Part shown: positions 7,224 to 16,329 of the stretch, piece by piece
Position numbering within the stretch: position 1 is the first letter of the stretch
How the letters are laid out: each line of letters starts with the position of its first letter
Assembly (NCBI GenBank): GCA_963764625.1
Contig: CAVXTH010000009.1
Span: forward strand, 199,739 to 263,738
Length of the DNA: 64,000 nt
Reading direction: 5' to 3'
Source of the DNA: Candidatus Krumholzibacteriota bacterium
GTDB taxonomy: Bacteria; Krumholzibacteriota; Krumholzibacteriia; JAJRXK01
The notes under the pieces: model-generated
Database searches by the model: none
Seen by the model: only the letters and a program-made list of their open reading frames with translations
Told to the model about the DNA's origin: nothing
Program-made: the position numbers and the translations under genes

Positions 7224-8702
7224 ATGGAGATCTGCGATGAAGGCTCCCCGGCCAGAATCCGCCGAGGCCACGGCAGCGGCGCACGGGCTTCCGACTCCGT
7301 ACGCGCTTGGGGCGCATTGCTTCTCCTGCTCGCACCATTCGTTCTCTCTTCCTGCGGCTTGGTTCAGAACCGCGAAAACACGGCGATGAAGAAGCTGCGC
7401 GAGGAGGTGCGCGGCAAGAATCTCGTGATGGTATTGCTCGACGCGGGGGGCTATGGCCACTTCGGTTTCGCGGGCTACGATCGCGATACCACCCCGAACA
7501 TCGACGCGCTGGCCGCCCAGAGCCTGGTGTTCGACACGGCCTACACGGAGGCGGCGTCGACCGGACCTTCGGTCTACGCCATGTTCACCTCCAGTTATCC
7601 CTTTCTCGCGGAACAGCAAGGACTCAAGGGCATCCGGGACGCCCCCTTCAAGATCGATGAGAAGACGGAGTTGATGCCGGCGCTCCTCGCACCGAAGTTC
7701 ACGCGGCGCGTGGCCTATTCGGCCAATGCTTGGATTGGCCCCGCGTTCGGTTTCGATCGCGGGTTCACCCAGTTTCACGAGATCTACGACAACGAAGCGG
7801 TGCCCGATTCGACCGAGCACCTCGCGGCTCGCAACGTCGATGCGTTCAAGAAGGATTTGAAGTCGTGGGGAAACGAACCGGTCTTCGTCTATCTTCATTT
7901 TCTGGAACCGCACTCGCCGTACAAACCCCCCGAGGAATTTGCCCGCAAGTTCGATTCGACGGCAATGGACAGCATCGACGCCAGCTCGCAGAGTCTCCTG
8001 CAATACCGCTTCGATCCTCCGAGCCCCCACCGGCAGGAAATGATCCGATCCCTCTACGACGGAAATCTGACCTACGTCGACTCAAAGGTTGGCGAGGTGA
8101 TCGAAGCCCTGAAGAAGAGCGGACACTGGAACGATACCGTCTTCTTGGTGATCGCCGATCATGGGGAAGCGTTCTGGGAGCATGGGGTCTACGAGCATGG
8201 TCACCATATCTATGATGAGTTCATGCGAATTCCTTTCATCCTGCACCTTCCGGGAGCGAAGGATCTCGTGGGCCGCCACATCAAACAGCCGGTTTCCCTG
8301 GTCGATCTGTTGCCCACCTACCTGGATCTCTTCGGAATCACTCCCCCGGACAGCCTGAGAGGTGACAGCCTGCTTCCCCTCATCGCGGGCAAAACCAAGG
8401 CCTTCGAGACGCGAAAGATCTTCCTGCGCAACACCCACCGAACCGTGCCGGAATTTGGCGTGCGCGCAGGTGATTACAAGTGGATCTATCGGGTGCGCGA
8501 GAGCAGCTACCAACTGTACGACCTCGCGGAGGATCCGCACGAACAGCACGATTTGGTCGCGGCGGGCATGGTTCCACCGGCCATCGAACCCCTTCGCAAG
8601 GAGATCGGGTTGTGGATCGCCACCGGAACGCACCGCATTCAACCGGTGGAAAAGCTCGATCCCAAGACAGAACAGAGACTCCACGCCATCGGCTATTTTT
8701 GA
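7224..8702 (+). CDS. Sulfatase-like (alkaline phosphatase superfamily) lipoprotein, paralog 1; Thr in place of the formylglycine Cys
   Basis: 492 aa ORF; lipobox VLSSCG; active-site region ASTGPSVYAMFTSSYP replaces the CxPxR motif; ADHGE and HG.H metal-binding motifs. Alternative start ATG 7237 has a GGAG SD but is in another frame. Confidence 0.8.
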   Translation: MEICDEGSPARIRRGHGSGARASDSVRAWGALLLLLAPFVLSSCGLVQNRENTAMKKLREEVRGKNLVMVLLDAGGYGHFGFAGYDRDTTPNIDALAAQSLVFDTAYTEAASTGPSVYAMFTSSYPFLAEQQGLKGIRDAPFKIDEKTELMPALLAPKFTRRVAYSANAWIGPAFGFDRGFTQFHEIYDNEAVPDSTEHLAARNVDAFKKDLKSWGNEPVFVYLHFLEPHSPYKPPEEFARKFDSTAMDSIDASSQSLLQYRFDPPSPHRQEMIRSLYDGNLTYVDSKVGEVIEALKKSGHWNDTVFLVIADHGEAFWEHGVYEHGHHIYDEFMRIPFILHLPGAKDLVGRHIKQPVSLVDLLPTYLDLFGITPPDSLRGDSLLPLIAGKTKAFETRKIFLRNTHRTVPEFGVRAGDYKWIYRVRESSYQLYDLAEDPHEQHDLVAAGMVPPAIEPLRKEIGLWIATGTHRIQPVEKLDPKTEQRLHAIGYF

Positions 8703-8761: not shown

Positions 8762-10225
8762 ATGAAGGTTCCTCGAAGATCCTCGGACGATACCGCGACC
8801 AGCCGGATTCGGCGCATGCCCCTCAGCAATCTGGGACTGTTGCTCGTTCTGGTGGCGCCCTTCTTTTTGATCTCCTGCGGCTCTCTCTTCAATCGTGAGA
8901 ATGCCAAGATGAATCGGCTGCGCGACGCGGTACGGGGCAAGAATCTCGTGATGGTACTGCTCGACGCGGGGGGCTACGGACACTTCGGCTTCGCGGGCTA
9001 CGATCGCGACACCACCCCGAACATCGACGCACTCGCCGCGAAGAGCCTGGTGTTCGATACGGCCTATACGGAGGCAGCGTCGACGGGGCATTCCGTCTAT
9101 GCAATGCTCACGTCGAGCTATCCCTTCCTCGCCGAAAAGCAGGGACTGAAGGGAATCGTCGATGCTCCCTTCAAAGTGGGCGAGAAGACCAATCTCATGC
9201 AGGCGCTCTTGGCGGCCAAGTTCGGCCGTCGCATCGGTATCTCGGGAAATCCCTGGTTCGGGCCGGATTTTGGATTCGATCGAGGGTTCACGAAATTCTA
9301 CGAAATCTACGACAACGAATCGGTGCCCGATTCGACGGAGCATTTGGCCGCGCGTACCGTCGAGGCGTTCGAGAATGACATGAAGTCCTGGGGAAATGAG
9401 CAGGTCTTCGCCTACCTGCATTTTCTCGAACCGCACACTCCCTACACTCCCCCTGATGAGTTCGCCCGCAAGTTCGATGCGGTGGCGGCGGATAGCGTCG
9501 ACGCGAGTGCGCGGAATCTGATCAAGTACCGGCTCGATCCTCCCAGTAAACACCGGCAAGAGATGATCCGCGCGCTCTACGACGGCAATCTGGCCTATGT
9601 CGATTCGAAGGTTGGGGAGGTCATCGAGGATTTGAAGAAGAGCGGCCGCTGGGACAGCACCGTGTTCTTGGTGATCGCCGATCACGGAGAGGCGTTCTGG
9701 GAACATGGGGTCTACGCGCATGGGCGCCACATTTACGAGGAGTTCATGCGGATTCCCTTCATCATGCACATTCCGGGAGCACCCGAATTCGCGGGGCAGC
9801 ACGTGAAGGAACCGGTTTCCCTGGTCGATTTGCTACCCACTTATCTCGACCTCTTCGAGATCAAACCGCCGAGTGGTCTGAAAGGGGACAGTTTGGTGCC
9901 CCTCATCGCGGGACGCACGGAGGACTTCAAGACGCGCAAGGTCTTTCTGCGCAACACCCACAGCATCGTACCGGAGTTCGGACTCAGGGCCGGTCGCTAC
10001 AAGTGGATCTACCGGGTCTACGAGAGCAGCTACCAACTCTACGACCTCGTGGAAGACCCGCACGAGAAGCACGATCTGGTCGCCGCGAACGAGGTGCCGC
10101 CGGAGATCGAGCCGCTTCGCAAGGAGATCGCACTGTGGATCGCAACCGGTACCGACCGCGTGGAGCCGGTGGACCATCTCGATCCGAAGACCGAGGAGCG
10201 CCTGCACGCGATCGGGTATTTCTGA
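8762..10225 (+). CDS. Sulfatase-like (alkaline phosphatase superfamily) lipoprotein, paralog 2
   Basis: ORF 8480..10225 trimmed to ATG 8762 (GGAGG 6 nt upstream); near-identical architecture to 7224..8702 (tandem duplicate), lipobox FLISCG. Confidence 0.85.
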   Translation: MKVPRRSSDDTATSRIRRMPLSNLGLLLVLVAPFFLISCGSLFNRENAKMNRLRDAVRGKNLVMVLLDAGGYGHFGFAGYDRDTTPNIDALAAKSLVFDTAYTEAASTGHSVYAMLTSSYPFLAEKQGLKGIVDAPFKVGEKTNLMQALLAAKFGRRIGISGNPWFGPDFGFDRGFTKFYEIYDNESVPDSTEHLAARTVEAFENDMKSWGNEQVFAYLHFLEPHTPYTPPDEFARKFDAVAADSVDASARNLIKYRLDPPSKHRQEMIRALYDGNLAYVDSKVGEVIEDLKKSGRWDSTVFLVIADHGEAFWEHGVYAHGRHIYEEFMRIPFIMHIPGAPEFAGQHVKEPVSLVDLLPTYLDLFEIKPPSGLKGDSLVPLIAGRTEDFKTRKVFLRNTHSIVPEFGLRAGRYKWIYRVYESSYQLYDLVEDPHEKHDLVAANEVPPEIEPLRKEIALWIATGTDRVEPVDHLDPKTEERLHAIGYF

Positions 10226-10241: not shown

Positions 10242-11921
10242 TCAGTCGTGCAGATTCTTGATCATGTAGGTTCCCTGCAACGCGTATCCCCGTCGGCGGT
10301 AGTAGGCCCGGGTTCCCACCGAGGCGATAACGGCCATGCGCGGATAGCCGCCCTCTTGGGCGAGTTCCTCGGCGCGTACCAGCAAGCGGCGTCCGAGCCC
10401 ACGGTGTTGGCGAGTCGCGGCGGGTGAATCCTCGGCGTCACGCCCGATCTGAAGCGCCGGCCCGTAGACGTGCACCTCGCGCACGAGCGCGCAGCCTTCG
10501 AGCTCATTCAGTCCGAGGTTCTGTCCTTGGGAGAAGCCCGGCGTTTCGGGCAACGAGAGCCGCAGGTACCCGGCGCAGCGGTCCTGGGGGTCGTCGAAGG
10601 AGAGAAAGACCTCTTCGCTCTCGCGACAATGGTACTTCTGCTCGTTCAGGGAGAGACTGCCGGTATCGACAACGTGGCTTCTCACTTCCCGACAGCGCAG
10701 GCAGTGGCAGCTCCGGTGCGACTGCTTCATGATCTCGGCGATTCTCTGGCGCAGATTGGTGATCTTGCAACCGGCCACCACGTTGGTCGAGGGAATGTCG
10801 CGGTAGATGCGATTGATGCGACAGTAACGGGGAACAAGTTCTTTGCAGGCGATGATCAATTCGATCAGGGTGTCGTCGTCGTAGGGTTCATAGTTCCCTT
10901 TCAACCAGTTCTGGTAGAGCGCGGCGTTTTTCAGGAGAGTCGTGGGGTAGATCTTGATCTCGTCGGGCCGCAGACCTGGATCCTCGAAGAGCTTCTGGAA
11001 GTCCTCCAGATCGCTGTGCGCGGCGGCCCCGTGCAGGTTGGGCATCCAGTGGAGCACCAGCTTGAAGCCGGCAGTGCGCAGTCGCGCCATGGCCCCGCGC
11101 GTCTGTTCCACCGTGTGGCCGCGCTGATTGAGCCTCAGGATCCGATCATCCAGCGATTGCGCGCCCATTTGGATCTTGGTAGCCCCCAAGTGGCGCAGGT
11201 GACGGATCTCTTCCAGAGTCACGTGGTCGGGGCGGGTCTCCAGCACGAGTCCGACGTTGCGGCATCGTGCGCTCTCGTTTCGCCTTTGGGCTTCCGGTAG
11301 GTTGGTGGAAGGTGTGAGGGTCTTTCCTCGCACGGAAGAACCCGACAAGCCCGTCGCGTCGTTCATGGCGTCCAGGCAACGCCGTACGAAATACTCCTGA
11401 TACTCGCGTGGATAACTCGACCAGGTGCCACCCAAGACCAAAAGCTCGATCTTGTCCGCGGGGTGCCCATTGCTCTCGAACGCGGCGATCCGCCCCGCAG
11501 TCTGCTCGTAGGGATCGAACCCGTGTTGCTCGGCTCGCATTGCACCGGGTTCATCGCGCAGATAGCTCTTGGGCATGCGGGCGTCGGTAGGGCAGAAAAT
11601 GCACTGGCCGGGACAGGGAAAGGGCTTGGTGAGGACGGTGACCGGGGTGACTCCACTCAGAGTTCGGACCGGCCGCATTTGGATGCGACGCAAGAGTCCC
11701 TCATCCGGAGCGATTACCCCGGTGGAAGAGAGCAGGCGGTATCCGGCGACGAGGTGGTTCTTGCTGAAGACGCCGTTGCCATCCCGGGGATGACGGCGCA
11801 GGATGGAAGCCAGGCGTTTCTCGCTCATCCGGTCGAGCGCGGCGACTTCCCGCAGAATGACGCGGAGGGTTTCACGGTAGTGATGAAGGTCGAGCTCTGA
11901 GAGTGGAGCTGGCTTCGCCAT
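10242..11921 (-). CDS. Elp3-like radical SAM / GNAT acetyltransferase (elongator protein 3 homologue)
   Basis: ORF 10242..11993 trimmed to ATG 11921; radical-SAM Cys triad PCPGQCIFCPT, blocks LETRPD, NRGHTV, LVREVHVYG, C-terminal GNAT VGTRAYYRRRGYALQGTYMIK. Confidence 0.85.
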   Translation of the reverse strand: MAKPAPLSELDLHHYRETLRVILREVAALDRMSEKRLASILRRHPRDGNGVFSKNHLVAGYRLLSSTGVIAPDEGLLRRIQMRPVRTLSGVTPVTVLTKPFPCPGQCIFCPTDARMPKSYLRDEPGAMRAEQHGFDPYEQTAGRIAAFESNGHPADKIELLVLGGTWSSYPREYQEYFVRRCLDAMNDATGLSGSSVRGKTLTPSTNLPEAQRRNESARCRNVGLVLETRPDHVTLEEIRHLRHLGATKIQMGAQSLDDRILRLNQRGHTVEQTRGAMARLRTAGFKLVLHWMPNLHGAAAHSDLEDFQKLFEDPGLRPDEIKIYPTTLLKNAALYQNWLKGNYEPYDDDTLIELIIACKELVPRYCRINRIYRDIPSTNVVAGCKITNLRQRIAEIMKQSHRSCHCLRCREVRSHVVDTGSLSLNEQKYHCRESEEVFLSFDDPQDRCAGYLRLSLPETPGFSQGQNLGLNELEGCALVREVHVYGPALQIGRDAEDSPAATRQHRGLGRRLLVRAEELAQEGGYPRMAVIASVGTRAYYRRRGYALQGTYMIKNLHD

Positions 11922-12010
11922 GGTCCTGTGGGAGGGAGGAGAGGTGACTGGGTGGCGGAGCGCGGCCGAGGGCTTCGCCCTGCATCGCTCCATAGTATAG
12001 AAGGATTCTA

Positions 12011-12748
12011 GTGCAGCGGTCCATTCGCCGAAAGCTGATCGAACTGAATCTCGCCCTGTACGGGCGCTTCGCAGGCGAATTCTCGAGTTCGAGAGCCGTC
12101 TTGCAGCCAGGAATCGTGCGCGCCCTCGCGACGCTGGGTTCGTTCTCGAGCCTGGTGGACCTCGGGTGCGGCGATGCGCGCGTGGGCCGGGCTCTGCTGG
12201 GGGGGCAAGTGGGGCCTACCGTCCAGGGATGGCGAGGGTACTACCTGGGCGTGGACGCCAGTCGGGAGCTTCTGGCTCTGGCCCCATCGCAAACCGAGAG
12301 CTTCCAGCTTCTGCCGGTCGATCTGTCGCGAGAGGATTGGATCGAGCATATCCCGCGACCCGAGGGCGGATTCGAGGCGCTCGTACTCTTTTCCGTTCTG
12401 CACCACATTCCAGGACGAGCGCAACGCCTTCGCTTTCTGCGGGAATGCTCCACGCTTCTCTCAGAGGGTGGACGGTGGGCCCTCTCTGTTTGGCAGTTCC
12501 TACATCACGAGCGCTTTCGGGATCGCCTCGTCCCATGGTCGAGTATCAAAGTGAGAGAGGACGAGGTGGAGAGCGGTGACGTCTTGCAGGACTGGCGGCG
12601 CGGTGGAAGAGGGCTGCGCTACGTACACTCCTTCGGGCTGGAGGAACTGCACGAGCTGTGCGAGAAGGCGGGTCTGCAGGTCGAGGAGCACTTTCGAAGC
12701 GACGGGGAGAGTGGCGACCTGGGGCTCTATCTGCTGGGCGAAAAGTAG
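12011..12748 (+). CDS. Class I SAM-dependent methyltransferase (Trm9-like by motif inspection)
   Basis: GTG start after AAGGA; SAM-binding motif LVDLGCGDARVG; C-terminal half VLHH...GG.WALSVWQF...RLVPW. Confidence 0.75.
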   Translation: MQRSIRRKLIELNLALYGRFAGEFSSSRAVLQPGIVRALATLGSFSSLVDLGCGDARVGRALLGGQVGPTVQGWRGYYLGVDASRELLALAPSQTESFQLLPVDLSREDWIEHIPRPEGGFEALVLFSVLHHIPGRAQRLRFLRECSTLLSEGGRWALSVWQFLHHERFRDRLVPWSSIKVREDEVESGDVLQDWRRGGRGLRYVHSFGLEELHELCEKAGLQVEEHFRSDGESGDLGLYLLGEK

Positions 12749-12749
12749 A

Positions 12750-15228
12750 CTAGGTACGATCGTGCAAGAGTTCCTGAATGCGGGCGAGAAAGATCTCGGC
12801 GACATAGGGTTTCATCAACACCTCCTCCTCGGCATCCAGCTCGGAACTTCCTTCCACTTCCGTGGAATTGTAGCCGGAGACGAACAAGATGCCCGCCTCG
12901 GGTTTCAGGGTGCGGATCTGAAGGCTCGTCTCGCGCCCACCCATTCTAGGCATGACAACGTCCAGGACAGAGAGTGCGATCTCGTCCTTGTGTAGTTGGA
13001 ACAACTCGAGAGCTTCCTTCCCGTCGGAAGCGGCCAGGACGCGATAGCCTCCACGCTCGAGCACTCGCGCGGCAATCTCCCGAACCAGGCGATCGTCTTC
13101 GGCGAGCAGGATGGTTTCTCCATTGCCGCTGTGGGGTTCGTTGGCGTCCTGGGGGCTCTGCGCCACCGCTTCGTCGGAGGCTGGAAGATAGACGGTGAGC
13201 TTGGTTCCCTTCCCCAAGGCACTTTCCAGGTCGATGCTTCCACCGTGTTGGCGAACGATTCCGTACACGGTCGCGAGCCCGATTCCCGTACCCGCCCCCA
13301 CCTCCTTGGTGGTGAAAAAGGGCTCGAATACATGCTTCTGGACTTCACGCGACATGCCCGAACCGTGGTCGCTGACTTCCAGGAGGGCAAACAGCCCTGC
13401 ATAGGTTCCCGGGTGCTCTTCGAGAAAGTGATCGTCGGCGAGCGTCATCGCCGGTGCGAACCGTGATGGTGCCTGATTTGCCCATCGCGTCCCGTGCATT
13501 GACACAGAGATTCATCAGAACTTGGCCTAGCTGGCTTTGGTCGGCATAGACCGCCGGGCAACGCGGATTCGCTTCGAAGCGGATTTCGACCGATTCGCCC
13601 ATGAATCCGCGCAGCATCTGAATAGTCTCCCGGCAAACCTCGTTCAGATCGACCACCTCGGGATTGAGGGTTTGCCGGCGACTGAAGGCAAGCAATTGCC
13701 GGGTCAGATGGATGGCTCGTTCGATCCCCTTGTGTACTTGATCCAGATCTTTGCGAGCGGACGACCCCTCGGGAATTTCCCCGCTCGCGAACTCCAGATA
13801 TCCGATCATGGCCTGGAGAATGTTGTTGAAGTCGTGAGCGATGCCCCCCGCGAGTTGTCCTACCGCTTGTAACTTCTGCGATTGAATCAGTTGCTCTTCC
13901 AGTTCGTGTCGCCGAGTGATGTCGGTTCCCACTCCGATGATTTCCGCGACTGAACCGTCGTCATCGAGGATCGAAGTTATCGACCAAGCCAGCCAACGCC
14001 AACCTACACCCGTCGTGGCTTTTTCCTCGAGGTGGCACGAGTGCGGTGGGCGGTCCAGTCCCGCCAGCGCGCGCTTCACCGCCTCGCGGTCATCTTCGTG
14101 GATCAACGACAGGAAGTCGGTTCCTAGGAGTTCCTCTTCTGATTTGGCGAAGAACTGGAAGCAACTCGGGCTCAGATAGAGGAAGCGACCCCGTGGGTCC
14201 ATCTTGACCACCATGTCGCTCTGATTCTCCACCAACAACTTGTAATTCTCCTGACTCTCCGCGAGAGCCTCGTGTCGCTCGATCAGAGCCCTGAGCGCCA
14301 GGGAGAGAGCGAGGATCAGCGCCAAACCCGCCAGGACCAGGATTTCATCGGCGAAAGTTCGTGAACCAGAGAGGTATTGAGGATCCAGGGCGAAGCGCAG
14401 AGTCCACGGTCGGTCCACCACGCGGACCTGGAGAGACACCGCCAGCGGCCATTTCGCATCCTTGTCATCGGGGGGATGGAGATAGGCCCGATGGCCAGTG
14501 GAGTCGAGAACTTCGAAGCGGAAGTGATCGCGCAAATCAGCTTCTGGAAGACAACTGTCTATCAGCGCATCGACTCGGAACACGCAGTTGGCGAATCCCA
14601 GCTGTGTTCCGGTGTCGGTTCGCAGCGGTTCATAGGTGGCGAACCCCTTTCCCCCCTGGAAGAGGTCGACCACGGGAGTCCGGCTGATGGAACCGCTCGC
14701 TTCAGCCCGCTCGAGCGTGACCGTGATTTCGGGGCGTGGATCGTGTCGCAGGTCTTGCCCCAACGCCGCCACGTTGGAAGTCTCGGGGACGACGATCTGG
14801 ATGATTCCCTGGTTATCAACGAAGTTCAGAGCCTGAATTCCGGGATAGAGTTGGACGAAGCGTGATGCGGTCGCTCGAAAGTTCTGACGCACCTCCAAGC
14901 TGTCGCTGAATTGCCGGCTGCATAGGTAGTCTACCGAAGCGGTGCGAGTGTCGATCCAAGATTCTACACGGCGACGAATTTGCTGCGCGGTGATGCGAGT
15001 CTCTTGTTGAATTCTCTCGTTCTCGATCCCGTCGATGATCGTCCACAGTGCGATCGTGGCGGCCGCACCGACGACGAAGAACACCAGCGGCAATCGCCGC
15101 AAGAAAGGACCCACCCGCTGCGCCTTCGGGGGATGTCGTGAGGGCTTGGAGGATTTGCTGGAGAAGAGCACGAACAACCCTCGGAGAAGTGTCGGAGTCG
15201 TCGAATCTACCACGAAGAAGCATTTCAA
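12750..15228 (-). CDS. Hybrid sensor histidine kinase (2 TM + periplasmic sensor, PAS, HisKA, HATPase, receiver); frame disrupted near 13446-13452
   Basis: ORF 13345..15228 carries TM/sensor/PAS/H-box (GGIAHDFNN) and the HATPase N-box (NLCVNARDAMGKSGTITVRTG); ORF 12750..13505 continues in another frame with G-boxes (DHGSGMS, GAGTGIGL) and a REC domain (ILLAEDD, DVVMP). Confidence 0.8.
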
Positions 15229-16011: not shown

Positions 16012-16329
16012 GTGAAGAAGCTTTATGTAGGCAACCTGCCTTTTAGTGCGACCGATGCTGAGGTCAATGAATTGTTCAGCCAACACGGTACGGTGCACTC
16101 GGTGGCTCTGATCAACGACCGTGAGACTGGCCGTCCCCGCGGATTTGGATTCGTGGAAATGGATGACGATGCTGCGCAGGCTGCCATCAGCGCCCTGAAC
16201 GGTTTCGAGATGGGTGGACGCGCTCTGCGTGTCAATGAAGCCCAGGAACGTCCCCGCCGCAGCGGTGGTGGTGGCGGTGGCGGTGGCTTCGGTGGTGGTG
16301 GCGGCGGTGGTCGCCGAGATCGCTGGTAA
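16012..16329 (+). CDS. RNA-binding protein, RRM domain with glycine-rich C-terminal tail
   Basis: GTG start; RNP1/RNP2 motifs LYVGNL and RGFGFVEM; C-terminal GGGGGGGGFGGGGGGGRR. Confidence 0.9.
   Translation: MKKLYVGNLPFSATDAEVNELFSQHGTVHSVALINDRETGRPRGFGFVEMDDDAAQAAISALNGFEMGGRALRVNEAQERPRRSGGGGGGGGFGGGGGGGRRDRW
16264..16311 (+). repeat. Simple GGY-triplet repeat encoding the poly-Gly tail of the RRM protein
   Basis: ggtggtggtggcggtggcggtggcttcggtggtggtggcggcggtggt. Confidence 0.5.

Follow-up and report, generated by a model that had tools for sequence, protein, structure and literature searches.

In bacteria the usual route to the side chains of the wobble uridine of transfer RNA (xm5U34 of tRNA) is that of MnmE/MnmG and MnmC, which gives 5-carboxymethylaminomethyluridine (cmnm5U) and 5-methylaminomethyluridine (mnm5U). 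At the same position CmoM methyl-esterifies uridine 5-oxyacetic acid (cmo5U) to its methyl ester (mcmo5U). Both are functional analogues of the system presented here but their enzymes and chemistry are unrelated to it. Here, we describe a divergent gene pair located in a 64-kb stretch of DNA from a Candidatus Krumholzibacteriota bacterium (contig CAVXTH010000009.1; the whole stretch is called the window), one gene encoding a homologue of the Elongator subunit Elp3 and the other a class I methyltransferase dependent on S-adenosylmethionine (SAM) that resembles Trm9. Neither of the two window proteins matched the MnmE/MnmG/MnmC or CmoM families in Pfam and NCBIfam scans.

In the literature MnmEG is presented as the bacterial route to xm5U34, and bacterial Elp3 is said to occur in Dehalococcoides alone, without any evidence for xcm5U (PMC7663514). 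A review from 2017 stated that no bacterial genes similar to those of Trm112-dependent methyltransferases were detectable (PMC5372719), and a paper from 2026 reports Elp3 in “numerous bacteria” and mentions no partner. We found no description of a bacterial Elp3–Trm9 pair in the searchable full-text literature.

The closest described relative of the methyltransferase is the eukaryotic Trm9/ALKBH8 domain (5CM2), which is, like the window protein, a class I SAM-dependent methyltransferase of similar size. Both show the N-terminal helix Y-x2-[IF]-A-x2-F-S-x-[ST]-R, motif I, an acidic residue after β2, an HH pair, VW, a Trp before the last hairpin and R-Y-x-H. In contrast with the eukaryotic enzyme, to which it is about 22–26% identical, the window protein carries an insertion with W110 in the β3–β4 loop that is contacted by Trm112 in Trm9, has Val in place of Y243 of ScTrm9 and ends with S-D-G...G-D-L-G-L-Y instead of the C-terminal D-N-W-W; moreover its gene stands back to back with elp3 and no Trm112 gene was found nearby. 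In Archaea the genes of Elp3 and Trm9 are clustered in Sulfolobus solfataricus (PMC2584109), and in Haloferax HvoTrm9 (HVO_1032) together with Trm112, which is needed for its solubility and activity, makes 5-methoxycarbonylmethyluridine (mcm5U), while 5-carboxymethyluridine (cm5U) is also diverted to unidentified derivatives (PMC6144793). These archaeal systems likewise combine a prokaryotic stand-alone Elp3 with a Trm9 orthologue (a likeness by description), whereas the pair of the window type is bacterial, divergent and distributed across many bacterial phyla. The stand-alone Elp3 proteins of Dehalococcoides mccartyi (DmcElp3, 5L7J) and Methanocaldococcus infernus (6IA8) have the same domain architecture and catalytic residues as the Elp3 of the window. 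The latter possesses a basic extension of about 84 residues as do archaeal and eukaryotic Elp3, but DmcElp3 is devoid of it, and this has been linked to the weak tRNA binding and activity of DmcElp3 (PMC6367351, PMC7663514). We propose with fair confidence, as the most likely reading, that Elp3 makes cm5U34 and that the Trm9-like partner methylates cm5U34 to mcm5U34, which would represent a two-enzyme bacterial route.

Kinship of the methyltransferase to Trm9

The methyltransferase gene (12011..12748, plus strand) encodes 245 residues from a GTG start, which is placed at 12011 by the alignment of residue 1 with 38 homologues from their own start. Its classification was approached with Pfam, a family profile and hhalign. 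Methyltransf_23, Methyltransf_12, Methyltransf_11 and Methyltransf_25 all score above the Pfam cut-offs, and Pfam and NCBIfam together yield generic class I matches only; the UbiG model TIGR01983 reaches 18.5 bits (cut-off 102.95) and no UbiE model is matched in the NCBIfam scan. With the single sequence the top hit among known structures is Trm9 of Yarrowia lipolytica (5cm2_Z) but this match is weak (E 0.012). A database search returned 327 relatives, several of them named “tRNA (uracil-5-)-methyltransferase TRM9” by the Joint Genome Institute (JGI), and family members carry the NCBI name “class I SAM-dependent methyltransferase”. The names pointing to Trm9 are automated KEGG Orthology (KO) labels only.

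A clearer picture emerges from an alignment of 39 family members used as profile. Among the PDB entries Trm9 (5cm2_Z) is again first, now with E 5.7e-15 and 58 bits over profile positions 26–225, and the alignment reaches beyond the Rossmann core into the N-terminal helix and, towards the C-terminus, into the W...RYxH region. All lower matches have at most 46 bits and most of them span only about positions 40–160, i.e. the Rossmann core; UbiG from the PDB is found with E 2e-8 (versus 6e-15 for Trm9) and in the core only. Comparison of this family alignment with an alignment of 22 fungal Trm9 sequences by hhalign gave 99.5% probability and E 5.5e-23 over 185 columns, with residues 14–227 of the window protein corresponding to 26–216 of Trm9. 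The preliminary description had seen Trm9 in this protein, with a UbiE/COQ5-like enzyme as the opposite case, and its view is borne out, since Trm9 comes first, no UbiE model is matched and UbiG remains far below its cut-off. Taken together, the profiles support the partner methyltransferase as a bacterial homologue of Trm9.

The family profile was also used to scan one genome per GTDB species, which revealed at least 80 methyltransferase loci; all counts given for these loci refer to the matches listed. When a hidden Markov model (HMM) built from the 22 fungal Trm9 sequences was run against all open reading frames (ORFs) of the 80 listed loci and the window, it matched the methyltransferase ORF in 80 of 80 loci and just one other ORF. 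Patescibacteria have a median score of about 90 bits (maximum 116), and metagenome-assembled genomes (MAGs) labelled as Gammaproteobacteria one of 82 bits (maximum 124); in Chloroflexota and the other groups the median is about 35–40 bits, and the window protein itself obtains 30 bits (E 7.6e-8). For the clade of the window the margin of Trm9 over other methyltransferases is thus modest. Judging from these graded scores, the family forms a continuum between members that clearly resemble Trm9 and the more divergent clade to which the window protein belongs. At its Trm9-like end stands a protein from a Gammaproteobacteria-labelled MAG (L038) that is 30% identical to Yarrowia-type Trm9 over the full length (E 8e-25). 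Some of the most eukaryote-like homologues of Trm9 occur in MAGs labelled as Gammaproteobacteria/Pseudomonadales (L030, L038, L040, L047, L049, L063, L065, L070 and L083). In 1.84 billion cluster representatives (clusters of 50% identity) the profile search detected 1,496 proteins with E ≤1e-30 and 4,575 with E ≤1e-10.

The AlphaFold (AF2) model of the methyltransferase has a mean confidence (pLDDT) of 95.4 and Foldseek places Trm9 first (TM score 0.74 on the target, 22% identity), but dozens of methyltransferases follow with similar E-values of about 1e-11. Thus the fold alone is not discriminating, and the case for Trm9 is carried by the sequence profiles and the active-site residues. In the mutagenesis of Trm9 by Letoquart et al. 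the variants D72A, H116A, W145A and W168A were inactive; in ScTrm9 R29A, R241A, Y243A and N271A retained at most 10% activity (R29A lost about 95% and R241A kept about 1%). R29 and H116 were proposed to position the carboxylate of cm5U, Y18 and R241 were modelled within hydrogen-bond distance and N271 was modelled as reading the uracil (all PMC4678810). ScTrm9 Y18, R29, D72, H115, H116, W145, W168 and R241 correspond to Y17, R28, D82, H131, H132, W161, W195 and R203 of the window protein. In the 39 family members each of the eight counterparts is either invariant or conserved to 90% or more; R28, H132, W161, W195 and R203 are among the invariant ones and D82 reaches at least 90%.

Along the gene (all coordinates on the plus strand) the N-terminal Trm9 signature Y17-x2-F-A-x2-F-S-x2-R28 is encoded at 12059..12094; its spacing is that of VYxxIAxHFSxTR in Trm9, Y17 and R28 aligning with Y18 and R29 of ScTrm9 and being invariant in the 39 members. 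The SAM-binding motif I VDLGCGDA (residues 49–56, 12155..12178) is aligned to VDVGCGNG of Trm9 with D50, G52, C53 and G54 invariant. H131-H132, the second of which corresponds to the essential H116 of ScTrm9, are located at 12401..12406 according to both the family and the Trm9 alignments. The C-terminal substrate-site residues W161, W195, R203, Y204 and H206 (12491..12628; W145, W168, R241 and Y242 of ScTrm9 and H195 of YlTrm9) are invariant in the family. Between β3 and β4 the family has a 6-residue insertion with the nearly invariant W110 that is absent from Trm9, where this loop is sandwiched between Trm112 and SAM (PMC4678810).

Several family members carry further additions. In P0435, P0438, P0457, P0468 and P0498 a conserved N-terminal module of about 65 residues is present (..DLYP.G..V.I...W..G.V...PGVWV...GR.W.VTN..IR), which looks small and barrel-like; Pfam detected nothing significant in the module of this group (Agenet, E 0.024). 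A GNAT domain is appended to the C-terminus of P0407, and P0389 contains a large endonuclease-like insertion. Fusions of Elp3 with the methyltransferase (of the Rosetta-stone type) were considered and rejected, as the long Elp3 homologues P0247, P0263 and P0515 are without a methyltransferase domain.

Elp3 and the conservation of the gene pair

The second gene of the pair (elp3, 10242..11921, minus strand) encodes a protein of 559 residues for which the matches to TIGR01211, Pfam and PDB entries predict a radical-SAM/GNAT enzyme carboxymethylating U34 of tRNA. NCBIfam TIGR01211 is matched with E 7e-145 and 483.4 bits (cut-off 350), residues 76–557 covering positions 51–522 of the 522 model positions, and Pfam recognizes Radical_SAM and Radical_SAM_C, a separate GNAT match remaining under the cut-off. 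Among the known structures DmcElp3 (5l7j) is matched with E 9e-109 and the Elp3 of Methanocaldococcus infernus (6IA8) with about 1e-101 to 2e-101; the eukaryotic structures follow with E 5e-86 for human ELP3 and E 7e-82 for the yeast protein. A pattern search of the translation located the radical-SAM Fe-S motif CPGQCIFC (CX3CX2C, residues 103–110, 11592..11615, minus strand), which is aligned to CPGKCIYC of DmcElp3, and, together with the PDB alignment, the acetyl-CoA-binding motif QHRGLG of the GNAT domain (residues 505–510, 10392..10409, minus strand). Lin et al. found K77, K193, E386 and Y441 of DmcElp3 to be essential residues of the acetyl-CoA pocket (PMC6367351); they have conserved counterparts in K157, K287, E482 and Y540 of the window protein. 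The N-terminus comprises about 84 residues before the beginning of DmcElp3, with 15 Lys and Arg versus 9 Asp and Glu. Such a basic extension drives tRNA binding in archaeal Elp3 and DmcElp3 is without it (PMC6367351). Judged by its sequence the ORF 10242..11921 is a full-length Elp3, and the match along the whole length that the preliminary description had claimed is sustained by the TIGR01211 score above cut-off and the intact Fe-S and acetyl-CoA residues.

The longest ORF on the minus strand spans 10242..11993 (583 residues). The upstream start at 11993 was rejected because its ATG is absent from the two closest loci (L115 and L135) and the public gene call has 559 residues: this call, for an identical Elp3 sequence (P0243), begins with MAKPAPL at 11921, and the alignment with L115 and L135, whose Elp3 is 80–83% identical, starts at the same ATGGCxAAGCC. 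The ORF coordinates and the 89-bp gap given in the preliminary description agree with our ORF listing. Among the motifs it quoted from both proteins LETRPD, LVREVHVYG, VGTRAYYRRRGYALQG, VLHH, GGRWALSVWQF and RLVPW are present, while “NRGHTV” is actually NQRGHTV. The nearest named relatives of both proteins come from Eisenbacteria/Latescibacterota MAGs with an identity of 54% for the methyltransferase and 63% for Elp3.

The pairing of both genes is conserved across phyla. The methyltransferase loci of the genome scan belong to Chloroflexota, Patescibacteria, Gammaproteobacteria-labelled MAGs, Myxococcota, Acidobacteriota, Fermentibacteria and others. According to tblastn, a divergent Elp3 lies upstream in 61 of the 80 listed loci (at less than 400 bp in 47), and four more, from Gammaproteobacteria/Pseudomonadales-labelled MAGs, have Elp3 on the same strand 5–7 kb upstream. 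It is absent from the flank in the remaining 15, three of which have less than 710 bp of upstream sequence. A second scan was anchored on Elp3 and covered 53 metagenome loci. Nine of them are cut at a contig end, and in 36 of the 44 assessable loci the methyltransferase is found divergently upstream of Elp3 with gaps of 24–390 bp. Since this adjacency recurs in 61 of the 80 listed and in 36 of 44 independent loci, it is not due to chance. When all ORFs of the 80 listed loci were clustered, Elp3 and the methyltransferase were the only two conserved families. Furthermore, the identities of Elp3 and of the methyltransferase to the window proteins are correlated across 83 loci (Spearman 0.89), and this parallel divergence is consistent with co-inheritance. 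The preliminary description had left it to related genomes whether both genes co-occur and keep their divergent pairing, and they do so in several phyla. Its statement that Elp3 is sporadic in bacteria understated the spread, as the pair occurs in many phyla.

The eight Elp3 loci that have no methyltransferase within 3–5 kb (L122–L127, L133 and L136, from digester and fermentation metagenomes) form one group of 43% identity with a nitroreductase-like gene upstream and an archaeal-looking N-terminus, and they are possibly archaeal. That they represent the short Dehalococcoides type was rejected, because the ORF of L133 can extend to 515 residues with the archaeal-looking N-terminus. A further arrangement is seen in the sister clade of the window (loci L001–L003 and L137–L140), where the methyltransferase gene follows ZnuA/ABC-3 metal-transporter genes at a distance of about 15–65 bp. 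The unlinked Elp3 (P0244, 63% identical; L141–L143) is positioned after a Pyr_redox_2 (thioredoxin-reductase-like) gene near rplU/rpmA, with the gene of an RRM protein downstream. This split arrangement means that the elp3 and methyltransferase genes can be unlinked.

Intergenic region and neighbouring genes

The spacer between the two divergent genes comprises 89 bp (11922..12010). It contains a hexamer (AGTATA on the plus and TATACT on the minus strand, 11994–11999) that is invariant in five aligned loci and a Shine-Dalgarno-like GAAGGA (12000–12005, plus strand) ending 5 nucleotides before the GTG start of the methyltransferase. A promoter scan of the spacer found a sole sigma-70-like site, TGGACC-18-TATACT on the minus strand, which includes the hexamer and is weak evidence (1 site versus 0.5 expected). 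In 35 of 88 distinct upstream regions (L004–L136; for example 9989–10000 in L004) TATAAT (at least 5 of 6 positions matching) ends 5–10 nucleotides before the methyltransferase start, against a background of 3.3. In 24 of these 35 it is located at exactly -7. A TATAAT just before the start codon indicates a leaderless messenger RNA, mainly in Chloroflexota; many lineages thus probably transcribe the methyltransferase leaderless, from a promoter standing back to back with the elp3 promoter. The clade of the window differs from these lineages by its GTG start and the Shine-Dalgarno-like GAAGGA. A co-regulation of both genes may be presumed from their arrangement.

The neighbouring genes on both flanks are convergent to the pair and unrelated to it: two sulfatase paralogues in tandem adjoin it at one end and a gene for a hybrid sensor kinase at the other. 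Thus elp3 and the methyltransferase gene form an isolated divergent unit. The sulfatase paralogues (Sulfatase and SGSH_C domains; 7224–8702 and about 8900–10225, both plus strand) are highly similar, convergent with elp3 and each equipped with its own signal-like N-terminus. The sensor kinase (CHASE-PAS-HisKA-HATPase_c-receiver, 12750–15228, minus strand) is split into two overlapping frames (13345..15228 and 12750..13505) between which the HATPase_c domain is broken, so that the gene is frameshifted, a pseudogene or wrongly assembled. A small RNA-binding protein of the RRM_1 type, whose tail is rich in Gly, is encoded at 16012–16329 (plus strand), at a distance of 3.3 kb from the pair. In L141 an RRM_1 gene is likewise located just downstream of the unlinked Elp3, and this recurrence near both Elp3 loci may be a vestige of synteny. 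Neither the Rfam scan nor the tRNA scan of the window gave a match.

Predicted function and its alternatives

According to the proposed mechanism elp3 and the methyltransferase gene would constitute a self-contained bacterial Elongator-type module for the wobble uridine. Elp3 would bind tRNA via its basic N-terminal extension and the central cleft, cleave SAM at the [4Fe-4S] cluster, hydrolyse acetyl-CoA in the GNAT domain and carboxymethylate U34 at C5, which yields cm5U34. The methyltransferase would then methyl-esterify the carboxylate of cm5U34 with SAM to mcm5U34, with R28 and H132 positioning the carboxylate and W161 and W195 stacking on nucleotides. The activities of both enzymes, their tRNA substrates, a shared regulation and a methyltransferase functioning without Trm112 are what we infer in this scheme.

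Several observations weigh against the formation of mcm5U by the pair. The methyltransferase of the window is a divergent member of its family, as seen from its E of 0.012 to Trm9 in the single-sequence search and its 30 bits with the fungal HMM. Y243 of ScTrm9 is replaced by V205, the invariant Y204 adjoining it, and in the window clade a counterpart of N271 is not identifiable, since SDG..GDLGLY stands against (K)DNWW and the profile alignment ends earlier. Eukaryotic and archaeal Trm9 need Trm112, but no third conserved gene (Trm112 included) was detected by ORF clustering in the 80 listed loci and a crude pattern search of the 64-kb window found no Trm112-like signature of the zinc-knuckle or GIP type. 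The methyltransferase of the sister clade, which is 59–62% identical (P0006–P0008), lies behind ZnuA/ABC-3 transporter genes and not beside Elp3. Finally, mcm5U has not been reported from bacteria (PMC7663514).

In the main competing explanation the methyltransferase is functionally linked to Elp3 but does not make mcm5U; it might instead methylate another Elp3-dependent side chain, another atom of the wobble nucleoside, an RNA other than tRNA or Elp3 itself, and these bacteria would end up with a modification unseen in eukaryotes. Strong linkage shows a shared pathway only, Y243 and N271, both of which Trm9 needs for full activity, are unconserved in the clade, the 6-residue insertion with W110 has no equivalent in Trm9 and Haloferax diverts cm5U to unidentified derivatives (PMC6144793). 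Nevertheless, we regard this explanation as rather unlikely. The equivalents of R29, H116 and R241, which are proposed to hold the carboxylate, and the stacking Trp residues are invariant, members from Patescibacteria and Gammaproteobacteria-labelled MAGs reach 100–124 bits with the fungal Trm9 HMM, and L038 keeps a candidate Asn at the position of N271 (KYNYY aligned to EKDNWW).

A non-tRNA role of the Elp3 homologue (protein acetylation or other radical-SAM chemistry), with the pair acting on another substrate, appears very improbable. Elp3 was once proposed to be a protein acetyltransferase and there are no bacterial in vivo data (PMC7663514) but the window protein matches tRNA-modifying Elp3 over its full length and contains all residues of the tRNA reaction together with the basic N-terminus. 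The idea of an unrelated methyltransferase for small molecules or proteins (UbiG/UbiE/COQ5-like or similar) that merely adjoins Elp3, an idea which could appeal to the generic Pfam matches and NCBI name and to the position after a metal ABC transporter in the sister clade, is largely refuted by 18.5 bits for UbiG at a cut-off of 103, the lack of a UbiE match, the adjacency to Elp3 in both sets of loci across phyla, the conservation of Trm9-specific residues beyond the Rossmann core and the reciprocal match of the Trm9 HMM to the family.

The stepwise formation of cm5U34 and mcm5U34 by the two window enzymes therefore remains our preferred reading, and it can be extended, more tentatively and with less than even confidence, to the whole family. 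In this extension the two-gene module would install mcm5U-type modifications in five phyla or more, Patescibacteria and Chloroflexota among them, and would do so free of Trm112, the extended β3–β4 loop with its conserved Trp replacing this partner.

The pair adds a new member from bacteria to a known pathway and is not a system of a new kind. What makes it interesting is how widely and tightly the pairing is conserved, together with the apparent absence of Trm112 and a prediction that is directly testable. Textbook bacterial U34 chemistry is based on MnmEG, but a large Trm9-like family (some 1,500 of the 50%-identity clusters, at E ≤1e-30) is genetically tied to Elp3 across phyla. As for annotation, genes now named “class I SAM-dependent methyltransferase” could be renamed. 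If the proposed function is true, the pair would offer a simple two-protein system for rebuilding the Elongator pathway in Escherichia coli, and a naturally stand-alone Trm9 independent of Trm112 might serve for the missing structures with bound substrate (tRNA). The conserved pair suggests that these bacteria modify the wobble uridine of their tRNA as eukaryotes and archaea do. If the module is active, bacteria would make mcm5U-type nucleosides and mcm5U would then be a modification shared by the three domains.

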